From the NCBI GenBank assembly GCA_035656635.1, contig DASRSD010000152.1, forward strand, positions 9,357 through 73,356: a DNA stretch of 64,000 nt, read 5' to 3'. The position numbers and the translations under genes are program-made. Within the stretch, counting starts at the first letter, position 1; each line of letters starts with the position of its first letter. Of this stretch, positions 3,039-15,793 are shown piece after piece. The stretch is from Pirellulales bacterium. GTDB lineage: Bacteria; Planctomycetota; Planctomycetia; Pirellulales; JADZDJ01. Under the pieces are notes generated by a model. The model saw only the letters and a list, made by a program, of their open reading frames with translations. It searched no databases and was not told the DNA's origin.

Positions 3039-6000
3039 GCTGCTGGGTTGAATTCCTCGCGGAACTGATTGATTACGGAAGGGTGATAAAGTTGAGATTC
3101 ATACCCCGGTTCATATGGAATCCCTTGCCATTGCAGAGTATCAAGATGAGCCGCTCGCTGCCAATCGTAAAGTTCATTGTAGACACCCCGTGTCTGCTCC
3201 ATAATTTGCGATTCCGTTAGCTCGTGCATGTAGAAGTTGATGTCATGCGCCGTCGTTTGACCAACTTTCAAGCGAGCGAACATAGCATCATTAGGAGCGA
3301 AATCAAATTGCGACAAATGTTGTTCTACTCGTGCTAGTCCCTGTGAGGTGACCTGGGGAGTAAACTCTGGATTCAAGATATTCAGCGGATTGCTACTTGC
3401 GGCAGCAGTTTCCAATTCATCGATGCTTAACAGCTTGCCAAACAAAGATCTGGCACCGTTGAATGCCGCTTCGCCAATGCTCGGTACCAAAACCGTGGCA
3501 TTGAAGAACGCTGTGTCACTTTGGATCGCGGGATTCTCCAGAGGCAGAGAACGGTTCTCAACCGTGCGCAAACTGCCGACAATATCGGCGCCAAAAGCAT
3601 TGGGCAGGACATTTGGGATGCTCGACGAGCCGGCGTTGAACGACGGATAGTAGACGTTGACATATTGGGTATTCAGAAGTTGAATTAGGCGATCTTGGAG
3701 TACGGATAGCCTTGCATTGGCGCCATATAAATCAAGGCTTTGTCCAAGATTATCCGGCTCTTCCAAGGTGAACGGAAACGTTCCGCGTTCGCCCCCAGGA
3801 TGGGCCTGCTCCCATTCGACCGAAGCCGCGTTTAGGCTGTTAATGACACTTTTATTCTGGCTTATAGAAATCTGAGCATATATCAGAGTTCGTGCGTTAT
3901 CGAGAGCCTCGTTGGCGTGCGGCGATCCGCTCAAGACCGACTCCGGTGCGCCGAAACCGTCGGATATCCAATTTGGGTTAAAACCATCGCCGCTGTTTGT
4001 TTGCGCATTGACATCAAGCTTCGACGGCAGCATTTGGCTGGTCGAGATTGTCGAGGGCTGGCCATAAGTGCCCAGCCAGCCAAGCGAAGAGTTGTCTGTA
4101 CCGAACTCTGCAATCGTCTGGTCAATTTGGAATGTGGAATTGAAGCTGCCACTGTTGAAACTGGAATTATCTTGGCTGGTGCCATCGATTTCTTCAGTGC
4201 TGGCACCGGCGAAACCATTGCTGCCAGTCTCGTTGTCCTCCAACTCTCCGCTAGTACCTCTGCCACCGATATCGCTGTTTCCTTCCCCTTCACTTTCACC
4301 CCCGCCCAGACCTTCATCTTCACCGTCCCCCTCATCCTCGCCATCATCTAGCCCGGAGGGATCGATAAAGTTCGTCGGGCTGTTGCCGGCATAGCGATAG
4401 GTATTAATGTCGGCGTTGGCCGGGTCGGTGCTGATGAATTGCCCGGTGTGAGGATCGTAATAACGCGCCTTGAAGTAATCCAAGCCAGTGGCTGAATCTA
4501 TCTGCTGGCCGGTGAAGCCGATAGCATGATTGATCGGATTGCTGTTTTGAGAAGACGAATCACTGAGAATATTGCCAAACGAATCATACACGATGTGATC
4601 GACCACGCCGGTCAGGCCGGTGCTGGGATTGTAGGTGGCAATGTCGCGCACGCTGCCGACATTGTCGGTCAGTTGCCAGTAGGTGATGCCTGGAGCAGAT
4701 TGCGAACTAACTTGTTCGTCGGCCAGAATTTCGTCAACACCTGGCCCCCACAGGTAACGATCTTGCACGGCGCCGGTTGAATTGCTGCGAGTCAGCAATA
4801 ACTGATCGCCGTTGTAAACAAATTGCTGACCGGTTGTGCTGCCGCTTGTAGTAACGGTTTCCAACACCCGGTTGTTAAAAGCATCGTAAGCGTAGATGAC
4901 GGTTTTGGTTGGATTTTGTCCTTGGCCGTTATTGGCATCAGCGTCCGTAAGGTTGGCATAATAGTTCACCGAAATCAGCCGGTTGCGGGCATCATATGCG
5001 TAATTGATCACCGTACCGTCGGAGCCGCTGATCTGCTGAATGCGGTTCCCGTTGTTGTCGTATTTATAGGTATAAGTTCCATCGTTGGTGATTTCGTTTT
5101 GCGCGCCGATTGTAATGCCGCTGCCGGTTCGATTGCCATTGGAATCGTATGAGTACGATTCATCATTCGTTTGGGACGTTGCCCCTGTTAACTGACCATT
5201 ATTGTCATACGCGTAGGAAACGTTTTCTTGTGGATGAACATTGTTAGTTTCGCTAGTAAGACGATTGTCGGCATCATAGGTGAAGGCATAACTGGCTAGT
5301 GACGAGTGGTTTCCTTGAACATCGACCAGGCTTAGTAGGTTGCCGTTTTGATCGTAATTGTACGTGGTGGTATCGACGACCTGCGTTCCGGTTGCATTGG
5401 CCGAGCGTGTGACTGTTTGCAGTTCGCTGGCAGAATCGTACGTGAAATCGACTCGTTCTGTGGCCACCGCCCCGTTGGTGGCGGATTGGGTGACGGTTTG
5501 TTCACGGCCCATTCCGTCATATTGATAGCTCAGTGTGTAAGGTGCAGTGTTGTTACTGCCGGTAACCGCGGTTTGTGATAGATCGTTATTGGGCGCGTAA
5601 TTATTAGCAAGGGTGGTGGTAACGCCATTGGGGTTGGCACTGTCGGTGAGCGTAAACGTTGTCTTGTCTAGACTTCTTAAGGCGTCCAAATTGTAGTTGT
5701 ACGTGTATTGGCTGGTGACCTGGGCAGAACCCGTGCCGCGAATGTCAGTGGCCGTTAAGACTTGATCGTCAGGGGCATAAGAATAGGTAATAGTTTCCGA
5801 CGTCCCATTCGGGTTTGTCCATTGCTGTTGTGTGTTGCGGCCGAAGGCATCGTTCTGGTAGTGGATCGTTGTCCAGTTAAGATCCGTAGATGTCAGCAGG
5901 CTACCTTGCTGATCATAGGTGTACGTTGCAGCCGCTAGAGTAGAATTCGAACCGGACACATAGACGCCCGACTCTGTTTCAGCAATTAGTTGGTTCCGCT

Positions 6001-11508: not shown

Positions 11509-11581
11509 GCGGGCGTAGCTCAGTTGGTAGAGCGCTAGCTTCCCAAGCTGGATGTCGAGGGTTCGAGTCCCTTCGCCCGCT
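11509..11581 (+). tRNA. tRNA-Gly (anticodon CCC)
   Basis: GCGGGCGTAGCTCAGTTGGTAGAGCGCTAGCTTCCCAAGCTGGATGTCGAGGGTTCGAGTCCCTTCGCCCGCT has a GCGGGCG/CGCCCGC acceptor stem, anticodon loop TTCCCAA and T loop TTCGAGT. Confidence 0.9.
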
Positions 11582-11681
11582 CTTTTTGCGATCCATCGGC
11601 AGAAGTTGCCAGGAAGTCATTTTGGGGGCGATGTGACCGGCAAGGCGTGTATCAGGCCGGAACTTCTGGGTGACCAGCAAG

Positions 11682-12224: not shown

Positions 12225-12449
12225 GTTTTCTGCAGGGCTAGCTGCGTTATCCCGGAGGCTGGGGACGCTTTCGCCGGAATCGGCGCTGGTGCTACCGCCG
12301 CCGTGAGAATCACCAGGGGCACGAAGAAAATGAATTTGTGCATGATTTCAGATTCCGGCATTGATGCTGTGATAGAAGCGTCCGCCGGGTAGTGTCTTAA
12401 GAATGCGTTGCTGGCTGATCGCGGATTGTGAAGCGGAGTTTCATGGGGG

Positions 12450-12842
12450 CTAGAATCCGCCACCGCCAAAACCACCGCTAGCCGGCTGCTTGTCTTTACT
12501 TTGCACGTCCGGTTGCTCTTGCAATAACTTTTTCCGTTCTTCGGGCGACAAGTTGTGGACCTCTTGGCCACCATTGAAAAATAATATGGTGCCGACTTCA
12601 GGAAAAAGTGATTGTGCCTCGTCCGGGTCTTCGTGTTTTGTAAGAACTAGCACTCCGGGGCTTCGTTCACCGAAAATCCGAAGCGACCAAGGCGCGAGGA
12701 TGTCCGACGTGCCCTCACGCCCGGCTAGGAACTGGTGCCGCTGTCTGATCCATTTAAGCTGGTAAGCACTCCACGCCATCGGCAGGCTTATAATCGCTAT
12801 CGCGAGTAAGAGCCATCGAAGGTTAAACCGTGGCCGTTTCAT
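12450..12842 (-). CDS. membrane-anchored hypothetical protein
   Basis: From ORF 12450..12887, started at MKRPRFNLRWLLLAIAIISLPMAW, an N-terminal transmembrane anchor. The tail is Gly-rich. Confidence 0.6.
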   Translation of the reverse strand: MKRPRFNLRWLLLAIAIISLPMAWSAYQLKWIRQRHQFLAGREGTSDILAPWSLRIFGERSPGVLVLTKHEDPDEAQSLFPEVGTILFFNGGQEVHNLSPEERKKLLQEQPDVQSKDKQPASGGFGGGGF

Positions 12843-12945
12843 GCCCGCATTGTACCCTGTCCGGTGGGCGCGGGGTTTGATCCGCATGGGGGCTGATTTC
12901 CTGGAATAATCCTAAAAAATGGCCGAAACCGGGGATTGCAGCGAA

Positions 12946-13000
12946 TTGTATAAATTTGTATATTTGCCGCTTTGCTTGGCGTTGTATATCGTTGTATAAT
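12946..13000 (+). promoter_or_regulatory. putative promoter/operator of the Gp49-XRE module
   Basis: TTGCTT (12972-12977), a 17-nt spacer and TATAAT (12995-13000) form the promoter. Four TTGTATA direct repeats sit at 12946, 12956, 12982 and 12992, as two pairs with 10-nt spacing. Confidence 0.5.
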
Positions 13001-13046
13001 AAGTTCAGGGACGGACCTCAATGAAACCGATAATTATGAGGCGGAC

Positions 13047-13484
13047 ATGGACAAGCCGAATAAGCAGGGGCGTCGCAAATTACAAAAGGTAGTCACGTGG
13101 CAGCGACTTGTAATTTTACCAATTATGATCCGCGAAGGTCGAGATGTGCTGACCGATGGCCAATACCTTCACATCAAAGACCATTTGAAAGAATTGACAG
13201 GATTTGGCGCTCGTAAGTTTACAACACAACTTCGGATTGCTCCATTTGAAGAATTTTGGGAATTGAAGGAAAAAGGCGGCGTATTAGGCAGGAAAAACAT
13301 TCGGATTTATTTTTTTCACGACACCGACGATAGCGACATCATTCTTTTGATGACAGATAAGAAGGAAAACGATGGACAGGCTTCACCATCAATTAAATAC
13401 ATCCTCAGAAACCGGCTTCGCCTCTACCGGCAGGGGCATTTCGCTGGTCAACTCTTTTTTTATGTTCGGCCGGAGAAAGGTTAA
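13047..13484 (+). CDS. RelE/ParE-superfamily toxin, phage Gp49-like (HigB-like)
   Basis: The segment ...FEEFWELKEKGGVLGRKNIRIYFFHDTDDSDIILLMTDKKEN follows the Gp49/DUF891 pattern (RI.Y......I.LL..F.KK). An XRE antitoxin follows it. Confidence 0.7.
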   Translation: MDKPNKQGRRKLQKVVTWQRLVILPIMIREGRDVLTDGQYLHIKDHLKELTGFGARKFTTQLRIAPFEEFWELKEKGGVLGRKNIRIYFFHDTDDSDIILLMTDKKENDGQASPSIKYILRNRLRLYRQGHFAGQLFFYVRPEKG

Positions 13485-13520
13485 GAGAAATCATAACCAC
13501 TCATCATGCGGAGGTGTAAT

Positions 13521-14009
13521 ATGCTGACGGTTGACACAAGTGCCGTGCGCGCATACAAGCAAGCGCTCAGGCGTGTAGGAAAATGGCTAGAAAGTTTGCC
13601 GAAGGAGACGGCGAATGACTTGTGTGACCTATTCCAAATGTATGCGAAAGCCAAGGAGGACGGCGACGAGGAGGAATTGGAAAAGGTTAATCAGGCTATT
13701 CGAGAAATCCTTTTGCCAGATTCCCTGAAAGACGGAGTTAATGCGAAATTTTTCGATGAACAACCGAACGTCAGGGCGAGGCTAGATGCATATCGTGCAA
13801 AGGTTGGATTGGAAATCAAAAAACGCCGGGAAAAGCTGCGTATGACACAAGCTGAACTGGCGGAAAAGGCTGGAATTCCACAAAGTCATGTGAGTAGGTT
13901 AGAGTGCGGAAAGCATGTTCCAACCCACATTACAATGGAGAAGATTGCGAGAGCGCTCAAAACGAAACCGTCACGACTAGACCCGGGGTTTATCGATGAC
14001 GATGAATAA
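13521..14009 (+). CDS. XRE-family HTH antitoxin (HigA-like) with an extended N-terminal domain
   Basis: RMTQAELAEKAGIPQSHVSRLECGKHVPTHITMEKIARAL is a Cro/C1-type HTH. A GGAGG Shine-Dalgarno sequence lies 6 nt upstream of the ATG at 13521. Confidence 0.75.
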   Translation: MLTVDTSAVRAYKQALRRVGKWLESLPKETANDLCDLFQMYAKAKEDGDEEELEKVNQAIREILLPDSLKDGVNAKFFDEQPNVRARLDAYRAKVGLEIKKRREKLRMTQAELAEKAGIPQSHVSRLECGKHVPTHITMEKIARALKTKPSRLDPGFIDDDE

Positions 14010-14027
14010 TTGTTTAGACAATTTTAA

Positions 14028-14059
14028 GCGGGGAGGATTTTCTCCTCCCCGCTTTCTTT
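14028..14059 (+). terminator. rho-independent terminator
   Basis: gcggggagga-tttt-tcctccccgc forms a 10-bp stem and is followed by tttcttta. Confidence 0.7.
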
Positions 14060-14093
14060 ATTGGGAGGATCGAATCATGCGCTGCTCTAAATA

Positions 14094-14181
14094 GGAGAGC
14101 GGCCCGCGTCTTGGAGGCGCAGCGGATTTATAACCCGCCAGTGGACGGTTCGCGCCGGGAGTTCGATTCTCACCCTCTCCG
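14094..14181 (+). tRNA. tRNA-Ser-like / allo-tRNA-like gene with anticodon UAU (or a tRNA-Ser pseudogene)
   Basis: The sequence is GGAGAGCGGCCCGCGTCTTGGAGGCGCAGCGGATTTATAACCCGCCAGTGGACGGTTCGCGCCGGGAGTTCGATTCTCACCCTCTCCG. It has a GGAGAG/CTCTCC acceptor stem, a G discriminator, a long extra arm, T loop TTCGATT and anticodon loop TTTATAA. Several stem mismatches are present and CCA is not encoded. Confidence 0.5.
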
Positions 14182-14382
14182 CTAACGCTTAGCGACATAG
14201 GCCCGGATTGCCTCTGTAACAGCCTTTGACCGATTCCACTTGCTTCGCATGGCTATCGCATCGAGCTGCTTAATAAGGCTCTCAGGCACCGTGACGGTCA
14301 TTCTATCGGTTATCCCTTCAGGATTGATCGGCTCCCTGCCTGAATTTTCCCGCGCGCCACCGTGCTGCTTCTTTTTTGCCAT
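14182..14382 (-). CDS. ribbon-helix-helix (CopG-like) protein, orphan antitoxin-like
   Basis: MTVTVPESLIKQLDAIAMRSKWNRSKAVTEAIRAYV is an RHH beta-strand plus two helices. The N terminus is basic (KKKQHGGARENSGR). The stop codon abuts the tRNA-like gene. Confidence 0.65.
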   Translation of the reverse strand: MAKKKQHGGARENSGREPINPEGITDRMTVTVPESLIKQLDAIAMRSKWNRSKAVTEAIRAYVAKR

Positions 14383-14421
14383 AACTTTCCACCTTTTTTG
14401 AAATAATCACACTAAATCATG

Positions 14422-14450
14422 TTGACGTAGCCGAACTGAAACAGTATGAT
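14422..14450 (+). promoter_or_regulatory. sigma70-like promoter facing the IS1 transposase
   Basis: TTGACG (14422-14427), a 17-nt spacer and TATGAT (14445-14450). Confidence 0.45.
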
Positions 14451-14591
14451 ACATTCAACGTTGGTAGTCAAGCCAACAAAAAACCCTCACGGCTGCTGAA
14501 ACAACCGTGAGGGCGAGATACAACCAGGCTTTCGCTAGGCTGCTCTGACAAGCCAATTCTAGCGAGAGCCGCAGTAAAAGGCGACTCGACA

Positions 14592-15632
14592 ATGGTAGTT
14601 TCAAGTTGCAAGCATGAGCAAACCAAGCGATTCGGTAAAAACCGTAACGGCACGCCGCGCGTCTGCTGTATTCTTTGCGGAAAGACTTGGACAATTCAGC
14701 CGCCGCAACCTTTGGGCGATATGCGAATCTCGTTGGACGATGCCAAGCAAGTTTGCCGCCTCTTGGTCGAAGGCATGTCGATTCGCGCTACCGAACGAGT
14801 TACCCGCATCAACCGCAACACAATCTGCAAATTGATTGTCCACTTCGGAACGGCTTGTCAGCGATTTATGGATGCCCAGATGCGCGGCCTGAAATTGTCG
14901 CATTTAGAATTCGATGAACAATGGACTTGGGTAGGCCGCAAGCAATCGCGGCTAACGATCAATGAAAAGGCCGAACGTCACGACGTTGGCGATGTTTATA
15001 TTTGGACCTGCATCGATAAGCAAACCAAATTGATGCCGTCATTTATGCTCGGCAAGCGGTCGGCCGACAATGCCCGCCGCTTTATGATGGACGTAGCCGG
15101 TCGGTTAGTATTCCCAAACCCACACGCCAGCGATGCCCACAAGTTTGCAATCGGGCAGTATCCCATTGTGTGCCAGCTCTCGACCGATGGTTTCGCTGGT
15201 TATCCCGAAGCCGTCGATCTAGCTTTCGGCCCCTACGTGAAGTACGGCACGATTATCAAGGAATACAAGAATGCCAACATGATTTACACGCCGTCCGAAA
15301 TGGTTGGAACCCTCCGCACTGGCAAGCGCAATATAGGGCCACGACAAGAGCGAACGATAACTACTTCGCATGTTGAACGGCTAAATGGCACGCAACGGGT
15401 TTTTATGAAGCGGCTAAACAGATTGACGCTGTGCTTCTCCAAGAAACTAGAGAACCTAGAGGCCGCTTTCGCTATGTTCGCCTGCTACTACAATTGGTGC
15501 TGGCGGACCCGCAAGCCGGGCAAGAGCGGCATGAAGCGCCCGACGGCTTGCATGATGGCGGGAATCACCGATCATCTGTGGAGTTTTGACGAGTTGTTTT
15601 CAGCGGTTTTGAATTCAGCAACGCACTCTTAA
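14592..15632 (+). CDS. IS1-family transposase (single-ORF type with N-terminal zinc finger)
   Basis: It has a zinc finger (CKHEQTKRFGKNRNGTPRVCCILCGKTW) and an HTH. DEQWTWVGRK...YIWTCIDKQTKL...STDGFAGYPEAV...HVERLNGTQRVFMKRLNRLTLCFSKKLENL matches the IS1 InsB DDE layout. Confidence 0.8.
   Translation: MVVSSCKHEQTKRFGKNRNGTPRVCCILCGKTWTIQPPQPLGDMRISLDDAKQVCRLLVEGMSIRATERVTRINRNTICKLIVHFGTACQRFMDAQMRGLKLSHLEFDEQWTWVGRKQSRLTINEKAERHDVGDVYIWTCIDKQTKLMPSFMLGKRSADNARRFMMDVAGRLVFPNPHASDAHKFAIGQYPIVCQLSTDGFAGYPEAVDLAFGPYVKYGTIIKEYKNANMIYTPSEMVGTLRTGKRNIGPRQERTITTSHVERLNGTQRVFMKRLNRLTLCFSKKLENLEAAFAMFACYYNWCWRTRKPGKSGMKRPTACMMAGITDHLWSFDELFSAVLNSATHS
14592..15632 (+). mobile_element. IS1-family insertion sequence (ends not determined; coordinates cover the transposase only)
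   Basis: The call rests on the transposase. I found only weak candidate inverted repeats (near 14537-14552 and near 15716-15735) and no clear target-site duplication. Confidence 0.4.
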
Positions 15633-15793
15633 GACACTACCGTCCGCCGAGCTTGGTGGCATCTATGGCGATACCACCTTATAATAGTCGCGGCCGTGGT
15701 GTTGCGAAATCGTGTGACTGACAGAGCACAACTCCTTTAAGTTGTCTGGATCGCGAATTTGCCCGACAGATTCGTGCGGGAACAGAGCGAGGG

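Follow-up and report, generated by a model that had tools for sequence, protein, structure and literature searches.

Is a tRNA-Ser-like gene that carries an isoleucine anticodon and lies close to a transposase gene a working gene or the remnant of one, and if it works, at what? The question is raised by an 88-nt sequence at positions 14094-14181 (plus strand) of a 64-kb stretch of DNA from a Pirellulales bacterium (contig DASRSD010000152.1 of assembly GCA_035656635.1), which is referred to here as the window. The initial annotation described a gene with the anticodon UAU and an irregular fold reminiscent of 9/3 or 8/4 allo-tRNAs, wedged between a toxin-antitoxin (TA) module, a ribbon-helix-helix (RHH) gene, and an IS1 element. 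Comparison with homologues lends good support to two statements: the sequence belongs to a family of conserved, structured tRNA-like genes with a 9-bp acceptor, a 3-bp T stem, a long variable arm, canonical D and T loops, the anticodon UAU, and a discriminator G, and the gene has a fixed place inside insertion sequences of Planctomycetota that carry cargo genes. As to function, we tentatively favor the decoding of AUA codons in the element's own genes.

A family of 9/3 tRNA-like genes

The sequence was confirmed at its position, and every structural detail that had been listed for it was present:

14094-14181, plus strand: allo-tRNA-like gene of 9/3 geometry, 88 nt (family covariation, covariance-model score, sub-threshold Rfam match)
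14094-14102 pairing with 14172-14180, plus strand: acceptor, GGAGAG/CTCTCC
14106-14120, plus strand: D arm, 5-bp stem GCGTC/GGCGC
14122-14138, plus strand: anticodon arm, GCGG/CCGC plus A.C, loop TTTATAA
14129-14131, plus strand: anticodon TAT
14139-14158, plus strand: variable region
14159-14171, plus strand: T arm, 3-bp stem GAG/CTC, loop TTCGATT
14181, plus strand: discriminator G

The acceptor of this copy contains the mismatches C7.C and G9.A, and its variable arm is weak (CGGT/GCCG with a T.G pair). The CTA that follows (14182-14184) is the TAG stop codon of the RHH gene, read on the opposite strand. The missing CCA had been counted among the irregularities; it is uninformative because the two canonical host tRNA genes of the window likewise lack it:

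1523-1595: tRNA-Arg(cct), canonical, without encoded CCA
11509-11582: tRNA-Gly(ccc), canonical, without encoded CCA

ARAGORN called only these two tRNAs in the window and made no call at 14094-14181, and Rfam at its gathering threshold reported the same two host tRNAs and nothing at the tRNA-like gene. The best sub-threshold Rfam match was a full-length one to the selenocysteine tRNA model (tRNA-Sec, RF01852), with 26.0 bits against a gathering threshold of 47 (E = 0.0034 in a 301-nt search). The folding energy of the window copy was no better than that of shuffled sequence (z = 0.21). Since the window copy alone is ambiguous, the decision was rested on comparison with homologues.

Homologues were reached through the adjacent RHH protein and through two DNA pattern scans with different anchors: the D and T loops were joined by the 5' end in genomes and by the 3' end in metagenomes. 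Genomes yielded 58 loci, nearly all in metagenome-assembled genomes (MAGs) of Planctomycetota (e.g., Pirellulales, Planctomycetaceae, Lacipirellulaceae, Thermoguttaceae, and Schlesneria), and the metagenome scan gave at least 120. The same family came back from the 3'-anchored scan, which left the 5' part free and nonetheless returned GGAGAGCGGCCCG there almost without variation; conversely, the discriminator is G in nearly all members, including those of the 5'-anchored scan, in which the 3' end was free. A total of 89 unique sequences were collected, almost all from Planctomycetota MAGs and metagenomes, and viral contigs yielded one true homologue only (locus L005).

A covariance model built on the family parts it from ordinary tRNAs: members score 73 to 105 bits, while everything else, ordinary class II tRNAs included, scores at most 54 bits, and ordinary tRNA-Ser genes score at most 43. 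The window copy, which belonged to the training set of the model, scores 74.8 bits, near the bottom of the family, and the rest of the 64-kb window scores at most 15. On Rfam tRNA-Sec (gathering threshold, 47), no member scores above 30.5 bits, and ARAGORN labels a few members tRNA-Ile(tat) and misses most. In annotation, such genes are therefore mostly passed over by ARAGORN, and by Rfam at gathering thresholds.

The cloverleaf was assessed on two alignments. On a structure-blind MAFFT alignment of 81 of the 89 unique sequences, RNAalifold independently gave the D, anticodon, and T stems, with compensatory changes at 10 of 14 pairs; one pair of the anticodon stem occurs as AU (31 sequences), GC (29), and CG (16). 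The 9/3 cloverleaf on this alignment has 89.1% of its cells paired, compared with 78.6% after shuffling (0 of 500 shuffles as high), 205 double-change cells compared with 60, and a covariation score of 0.319 compared with 0.133, while slid controls gave 49 to 62% paired and scores of 0.07 to 0.11. On the covariance-model alignment, the corresponding values were 91.5% and 79.2% paired (again 0 of 500 as high), 173 and 44 double-change cells, and scores of 0.348 and 0.127, with 46 to 64% paired in the slid controls.

Compensatory substitutions, which the initial annotation had proposed to look for, were found in four of the five stems (D, anticodon, variable, and T); the acceptor varies by G.U wobble only. 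The D stem of 5 bp is 98.7 to 98.8% paired, with double changes at all five pairs on the MAFFT alignment and at four of five on the model-based one, and it closes a loop of 5 to 6 nt that holds an invariant TTGG. The variable-arm stem is 4 to 7 bp long and shows compensatory changes at all four modelled pairs. The 9/3 branch itself can be read from the raw sequences: G9 pairs with C in 80 of 83, and the fourth T-stem pair of an 8/4 alternative could form in 3 of 83. G.U pairs are common on the plus strand (one D-stem pair is U.G in 50 of 81 sequences) and would become A.C mismatches on the opposite strand, and thus the selected molecule is the plus-strand RNA.

The loops of the family are conserved in the manner of real tRNA loops, as judged from the alignments. 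TTGG (G18 G19) in the D loop and GTTCGAYT in the T loop are invariant, the anticodon TAT is kept in 87 of 89 sequences, and T33 and A37 are nearly invariant. Elsewhere in the anticodon loop, position 32 can be C, T, or A, and all four bases occur at position 38. The fold is equally well kept beside intact and broken transposase genes (24.1 and 23.6 of 26 pairs, respectively; P = 0.25), which points to selection on the RNA itself without indicating its purpose. By these comparisons, the fold is no product of chance, and the family is clearly under selection.

A fifth helix, between CCC at positions 10 to 12 and the GGG of a TAGGG linker, was considered and set aside as unsupported, both sides being nearly invariant and the variants amounting to one compensatory change, one wobble, and several mismatches.

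Several relatives of the family were also met. A metagenomic 8/4-type tRNA-like gene with the anticodon TAT, a perfect 8-bp acceptor, and a 4-bp T stem (L106:1252-1421, minus strand) scores 43.5 bits on the family model and is related but distinct; it lies directly beside a tRNA-Thr(tgt) gene, like the irregular-tRNA polycistrons of Mukai et al. A related tRNA-like sequence with the different loop ATTTACA scores 54 bits (L082:953-1040). Split or partial family copies occur at L012:3208-3240 and 3439-3511, and a second, degenerate copy lies 1.3 kb upstream of an intact one (L028:4272-4366). The 3'-anchored scan also caught metagenomic tandem arrays of class II tRNA-like genes that end in CTCTCCGCT without CCA (L092/L123, L098, L100, L129, and L126), which may be phage or irregular tRNA clusters.

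The insertion sequences that carry the gene

The supposed neighbors of the tRNA-like gene turned out to share one mobile element with it, instead of being the independent TA, RHH, and IS1 units between which it had been placed. The features of this element in the window, including its open reading frames (ORFs), are as follows:

12380-12387: left target-site duplication, 8 bp, GTCCGCCG (identical octamer just outside both repeats)
12388-12411, plus strand: left terminal inverted repeat, 24 bp, GGTAGTGTCTTAAGAATGCGTTGC (matches the right repeat at 23 of 24 positions; matches the repeats of an exactly bounded relative)
12450-12887, minus strand: cargo ORF, 145 amino acids, 3 ATA codons (ORF list; no Pfam family match)
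13047-13484, plus strand: cargo ORF, 145 amino acids, putative Gp49/HigB-like toxin (called as a gene on the source contig; sole Pfam match PF05973, E = 0.079, sub-threshold)
13506-14009, plus strand: cargo ORF, XRE-type helix-turn-helix (HTH) protein, putative antitoxin or regulator (Pfam HTH_3, E = 7e-14)
14026-14054, plus strand: intrinsic-terminator-like hairpin followed by a T-rich tract, 3' of the XRE gene (terminator scan; 12-bp stem with 8 G-C pairs)
14182-14382, minus strand: small RHH (CopG-type) gene, 66 amino acids (Pfam RHH_1, E = 7e-6; its stop abuts the 3' end of the tRNA-like gene)
14422-14471: candidate divergent promoter-like sites in the gap between RHH and transposase genes, TTGACG-17-TATGAT (plus strand) and TTGACT-17-CATACT (minus strand) (consensus scan)
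14592-15632, plus strand: IS1-family DDE transposase, 346 amino acids (NCBIfam NF033558, 71 bits against a cutoff of 100, E = 1e-19; IS1/IS1595 zinc-binding N-terminus)
15618-15641, minus strand: right terminal inverted repeat, GGTAGTGTCTTAAGAGTGCGTTGC on the minus strand (overlaps the transposase stop codon)
15642-15649: right target-site duplication, 8 bp, GTCCGCCG (identical octamer)

The two repeats agree at 23 of 24 positions, with 0 such agreements expected by chance. Given paired 24-bp repeats and a perfect 8-bp duplication, the window therefore holds a complete IS1-family insertion of 3,254 bp at 12388-15641, about 800 bp to the right of the tRNA-Gly gene. Its order is left repeat, 145-amino-acid ORF (minus strand), toxin-like/XRE pair with terminator, tRNA-like gene, RHH gene, transposase gene, and right repeat. 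Assignment to the IS1 family follows from the DDE transposase (NF033558, below cutoff), the terminal repeats, and the 8-bp target duplication (8 to 9 bp being expected). The XRE gene, the RHH gene, and the IS1-family transposase of the initial annotation stand; its label Gp49 has behind it the weak Pfam match given above. NCBIfam antitoxin-type HTH families match the XRE-type ORF below their cutoffs, and PADLOC made no defense-system assignment for the toxin-like cargo ORF or the RHH protein.

The same layout recurs across the family: a left repeat, 1 to 4 kb of variable cargo with TA-like and defense-like genes, the tRNA-like gene (plus strand), an RHH gene (minus strand), a DDE transposase gene (plus strand), and a right repeat. 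In most copies, a small RHH-type ORF on the minus strand ends at +87 to +98, within a few bases of the 3' end of the tRNA-like gene, and the transposase gene starts at about +480 to +530. The RHH-type ORFs fall into three sequence subtypes, all with a basic, GRP-rich N-terminus. Where the sequence extended far enough (13 loci, IS1 and IS4 types both among them), a left repeat matching the right one was located 1 to 4 kb upstream of the RNA, and the heterogeneous left flanks, with DUF3800-like, HEPN-like, Panacea-like, and TA-like ORFs, are therefore cargo.

Two unrelated transposases accompany the gene. The distant IS1-family transposase is present in 59 copies (NF033558, at 71 bits, which is below the cutoff of 100); it has 1,362 homologues at E ≤ 1e-5, annotated by their sources as IS1 family, and a lineage that was chosen through its transposase also carries the tRNA-like RNA, 477 nt upstream. 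In 10 copies, the transposase is a bona fide IS4-family enzyme (NF033592, 210 bits). The arm of tRNA-like gene and RHH gene is seen with the IS4-family transposase at L068:4506-6387 and also in L036, L041, L060, L066, L142, L160, and L178; the IS4-type elements have inverted repeats of their own (GGCACACGGTTAAGG...) and 2.6 to 2.7 kb of cargo. The tRNA-like/RHH arm thus seems to be a module common to two transposon families.

One relative lacks the tRNA-like gene. Its transposase is 70% identical to that of the window, and a 3,237-bp block (L197:651-3887; also L195, L196, and L198 to L200) is 100% identical between different flanks, which fixes the termini exactly. They are near-perfect 24-bp inverted repeats, GGTAGTGTCCTAA(G/C)AGTGTGTTGC, with two 8-bp target duplications, and they enclose a 329-amino-acid ORF, a 58-amino-acid RHH gene, a 69-amino-acid ORF, and the transposase gene. 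This lineage is a natural control for the function of the RNA.

The termini of the tRNA-less relative overturned a reading in which the 5' end of the tRNA-like gene formed the left end of the element. That reading was based on pairwise homology between copies, which starts at base 1, and on the lack of a nearby inverted repeat; the true left repeat lies 1.7 kb upstream. From the aligned copies, base 1 of the tRNA-like RNA is where the variable cargo meets the conserved core. The first 14 nt of the RNA recur, inverted and degenerate (...GCGGGCCGCTCTCC...), 2 to 20 nt upstream, at 14075-14093 in the window; an exact inverted match of at least 7 nt to the 5' end occurs in 22 of 81 flanks, compared with 2 and 0 in control windows. 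At the cargo/core junction, such a copy may pair with the 5' acceptor strand into a hairpin, or it may mark a site or a scar of recombination. A conserved gene to the left of the RNA was also considered, prompted by a recurrent CATG at about -40, and was rejected, the leftward ORFs being heterogeneous.

Two further observations concern the core. Just inside the left repeat of one IS1-type sub-lineage (L015, L114, L058, L024, and L005) lies an ORF of about 130 to 190 amino acids with the motif ELLKR.ALLRRNA.I..AKR.Y.NELK.IK, which may be a further core gene; in L015, it spans -2049 to -1662 relative to the start of the tRNA-like gene. In the window, the gap from the divergent promoter-like sites to the start of the transposase gene contains a strong 14-bp hairpin (14483-14514), followed on the minus strand by a T run; the hairpin could be the terminator of an antisense transcript or a structure in the 5' untranslated region of the transposase mRNA.

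Insertion sequences of the IS1 family that carry passenger genes are termed "transporter IS" in ISfinder usage, and the repeats of classical IS1 begin with GGTAATG or GGTGATG. The present elements share with them a DDE transposase with a zinc-finger N-terminus, repeats beginning with GGTAGTG, and 8-bp target duplications. They differ in a single long transposase ORF that scores below the NCBIfam cutoff, the divergent RHH gene, the 1 to 4 kb of cargo, and the internal tRNA-like gene.

Relation to allo-tRNAs and other tRNAs

In 2017, Mukai et al. (Nucleic Acids Res.; PMC5389517) described allo-tRNAs as false positives that resemble tRNA-Sec: their acceptor branch is 8/4 or 9/3, the variable arm is long, the D arm is like that of tRNA-Sec, and the discriminator is G or U. 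UAU is among their predominant anticodons, and allo-tRNA(UAU) is the most abundant group, with altered cloverleaves, stem-destabilizing mutations, and locations near TA systems and transposon genes; in Edaphobacter C40, an allo-tRNA(UAU) overlaps a transposon-related ORF (PMC5389517). A later review repeats this account of allo-tRNA(UAU). The parallel with allo-tRNAs that the initial annotation had drawn is borne out, and the family fits the allo-tRNA(UAU) class, beside which it was set by published description only.

Shared with allo-tRNA(UAU) are the acceptor/T branch of 12 positions, the long variable arm, the long D stem with a small loop, the discriminator G, and the anticodon UAU, as well as stem-destabilizing mismatches (here 7:66 and 31:39), a TA/transposon neighborhood, and a match to Rfam tRNA-Sec that is sub-threshold only. 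There are also differences. Published UAU species are mainly 8/4, whereas the present family is 9/3, and they were listed from Clostridia, Proteobacteria, and Acidobacteria, whereas the present family is almost wholly from Planctomycetota. The D loop of allo-tRNAs is described as a tetraloop and is slightly larger here, at 5 to 6 nt. The lengthened anticodon stem of allo-tRNAs is missing, the sixth pair of that stem (A.C) not being formed; Mukai et al. state that the UAU group deviates from the standard cloverleaf. Placement as a core gene in IS1 or IS4 cargo elements and ATA richness throughout the element do not appear in Mukai et al. (PMC5389517).

The family resembles tRNA-Sec (RF01852), its best Rfam match, in its extended acceptor, its 5- to 6-bp D stem with a small loop, and its long variable arm. 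It is set apart by scores of 26 to 30.5 bits against a gathering threshold of 47, the anticodon UAU instead of UCA, a 9/3 instead of an 8/5 branch, and the lack of a selenoprotein context. Like canonical class II tRNA-Ser, it starts its acceptor with GGAGAG and has G73, a canonical T loop, and a long variable arm. It departs from tRNA-Ser in its D arm and 9/3 branch, in two linkers (one of 3 nt that follows the acceptor and a long one, TAGGG, ahead of the variable arm), and in an anticodon that is not one for Ser.

New here is the placement of the gene as a core component of IS1 and IS4 cargo-carrying elements; the member itself has 9/3 geometry and comes from a phylum that Mukai et al. did not list. 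Our literature search found no paper that ties allo-tRNAs to any one transposase family or that describes a tRNA-like gene in IS1 elements, and a search for the 5' 13-mer of the family returned nothing relevant. Allo-tRNA(UAU), an orphan class since 2017, gains a defined home as a core gene of cargo elements that are very common in Planctomycetota, together with a covariance-supported 9/3 structure, a model that cleanly separates its members from ordinary tRNAs, and a specific hypothesis, open to test, on the decoding of AUA. As the TA genes are element cargo, the published nearness of allo-tRNA genes to varied TA systems is also accounted for.

Proposed AUA decoding and its rivals

The reading that we favor, with a confidence somewhat short of even, is that the RNA decodes AUA for the element's own genes. 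It would be made from the plus strand, fold into an L-shaped tRNA, be processed like a tRNA, and serve as an extra decoder of a rare codon that element genes use three to five times more than host genes do. The useful charge would be Ile or a tolerated substitute and not a programmed Ile-to-Ser recoding, since the ATA codons of the element sit at conserved isoleucine positions. Phage-borne tRNAs and bldA of Streptomyces are examples of a mobile or regulatory tRNA that matches a host-rare codon used by a specific gene set. An element-borne AUA decoder would parallel the phage-carried tRNAs, with a likeness to them and to bldA that lies in the possible working and not in family; in the present case, the tRNA-like structure departs from the canonical one, an insertion sequence acts as carrier, and the function is putative. 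Were AUA decoding true, this would be a transposon that brings its own tRNA, and the most abundant class of allo-tRNAs would have a function. In a bolder and rather unlikely form of the proposal, the element carries its own translational license: an allo-tRNA(UAU) charged through its anticodon, with Ile or a near-cognate amino acid, would gate expression of the ATA-rich transposase, RHH, and cargo genes, as a bldA-like circuit on a transposon.

Codon usage supplies the argument for decoding. The share of ATA among Ile codons is 21.2% (102/481) in 30 unique IS1-type transposases, 16.3% (21/129) in the IS4-type transposases, 19% (26/136) in the RHH ORFs, and 16.4% (62/377) in cargo ORFs of the 12 elements with defined boundaries, compared with 5.1% (25/492) in ORFs outside the elements. 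The GC content at third codon positions is 0.71 in the transposases and 0.69 in flanking ORFs (first host set), and most other A-ending codons, TTA, GTA, and AGA among them, are not enriched in the transposases. In homologues, the residues aligned to transposase ATA codons are 51% Ile, 10% Val, 9.5% Met, 6% Leu, and 1.7% Ser, and one conserved Ile column of the transposase uses ATA in 18 of 26 copies. In the window, 2 of 5 Ile codons of the RHH gene and 2 of 18 of the transposase gene are ATA, including that of the conserved column. The ATA richness weakly favors a role as an AUA decoder.

Several findings weigh against this role. The first host codon set contained cargo genes, and the figures for cargo and outside ORFs were therefore redone with true element boundaries; both ATA and CTA then proved to be enriched throughout the element, which weakens the specificity of the ATA signal. 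CTA makes up 15.0% of Leu codons in cargo and 3.3% outside, and it is enriched about as much as ATA in IS1-type transposases and cargo, though not in IS4-type transposases. The element carries no tRNA that matches CTA (no tRNA-Leu(UAG)), and hence part or all of the ATA signal may be a general codon bias of foreign genes. The single tRNA-less relative has too few Ile codons to bear on a coupling between ATA and the RNA. No promoter motif was found at a fixed distance upstream of the family copies. The window copy has 20 of 26 model pairs intact, the fewest among full-length copies. G73 and the long variable arm suggest Ser identity, in conflict with the Ile positions at which ATA is used. In the published test, six amber-converted allo-tRNA(UAU) variants were inactive in E. 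coli, and two were lethal (PMC5389517); as the change from UAU to CUA would abolish anticodon-dependent charging of the isoleucyl-tRNA synthetase type, this test may have been negative on that account.

Parts of the structure also speak against decoding, and they bring in the strongest of the alternatives. The anticodon stem has four well-paired positions, and its closing pair is open in 39 of the 81 sequences aligned with MAFFT and in 28 of 62 on the covariance-model alignment; pair 7:66 is open in about 75% of members; and the unpaired C7, C10 to C12, and the TAGGG linker are nearly invariant, looking more like a protein or DNA recognition surface than like ordinary tRNA features. A tRNA mimic that never enters the ribosome is accordingly a real possibility, if one that we would not put first. 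It would recruit tRNA-handling factors, such as RNase P or Z, the CCA-adding enzyme, a synthetase, or a tRNA-targeting toxin of the cargo, or act in cis; in the latter case, it might serve as a processing signal, insulate the cargo from the RHH/transposase transcription units, or pair as an antisense RNA with the convergent RHH mRNA. Mukai et al. (PMC5389517) concluded that most allo-tRNA(UAU) species may not be used in translation. The conserved mismatches 7:66 and 31:39 and the invariant unpaired bases point the same way, as do the position of the gene exactly at the cargo/core junction, where homology between copies begins with its first base, the RHH stop codon that abuts the 3' end of the RNA in most copies, the service of the same arm to two unrelated transposase families, and the inverted 5'-end copy upstream, which is frequent in family flanks (22 of 81) and nearly missing from controls (0 to 2). 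A purely structural role, however, leaves the fixed U33, UAU, and A37 unexplained while the stem covaries and positions 32 and 38 drift; the ATA richness of the whole element becomes a coincidence; and a partner protein or cleavage site is hypothetical. Should AUA decoding prove false, the family would represent a widespread tRNA mimic in transposon biology.

AUA decoding has also to be set against missense decoding, which the initial annotation had put forward for the case that the RNA is expressed and charged. Seryl-tRNA synthetase (SerRS) ignores the anticodon, so that a serylated RNA would place Ser at AUA codons, as a toxin-like activity or as a brake on the transposase. G73, G1-C72, G2-C71, and the long variable arm do resemble Ser identity elements (as restated in PMC5389517), other allo-tRNAs insert Ser at Leu codons and are toxic, and two of the six UAU variants tested killed E. 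coli (PMC5389517). We nevertheless regard this as improbable. The enriched ATA codons of the transposase stand at conserved Ile positions, with Ser at only 1.7% of aligned residues, and serylation would therefore damage the element's own proteins; an intended Ile-to-Ser reading is hard to reconcile with such codons. In addition, a Ser146 amber reporter was silent for the six UAU-derived variants, although charging by SerRS should survive a change of anticodon (PMC5389517), and the linker before the variable arm is unusually long.

Less probable again is a site that acts at the DNA level, a recombination or cargo-capture site or a binding site of the RHH protein, descended from a captured tRNA gene and without any function as RNA. 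The classic role of tRNA genes as recombination targets, the conserved/variable junction at base 1, the inverted copy nearby, and a 5' 13-mer that is nearly invariant even where the search left it free would all suit such a site. Against it, four stems (D, anticodon, variable, and T) show compensatory changes and the G.U pairs are specific to one strand, both being marks of selection on a folded single strand and not on duplex DNA; nor would a DNA site need 88 nt of cloverleaf.

The reading of the gene as a decaying host tRNA-Ser pseudogene without family or function, which had been held equally compatible with its irregularities, could appeal to the 6 of 26 broken pairs of the window copy, its score, which is the lowest of the full-length members, and the misses by ARAGORN and by Rfam at gathering threshold, but it is highly improbable and, for the family as a whole, contradicted. 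The 89 unique homologues make up a separate cluster, covary in their stems, keep the anticodon, and lie within conserved mobile elements. Canonical tRNA-Ser has neither the 9/3 branch nor a D arm of this kind, with a 5-bp stem and a small loop, and a copy identical to that of the window occurs in a second sample.

The caution about decay thus fails for the family and holds for the window copy, which, among the aligned members, is a somewhat decayed representative of a conserved tRNA-shaped RNA. Beyond the two habitual mismatches, it shows G9.A, its variable arm is weakened, and the linker reads GTGG where the family keeps AGGG; this particular copy may have lost its function. In the second sample, the identical copy stands in an identical context.

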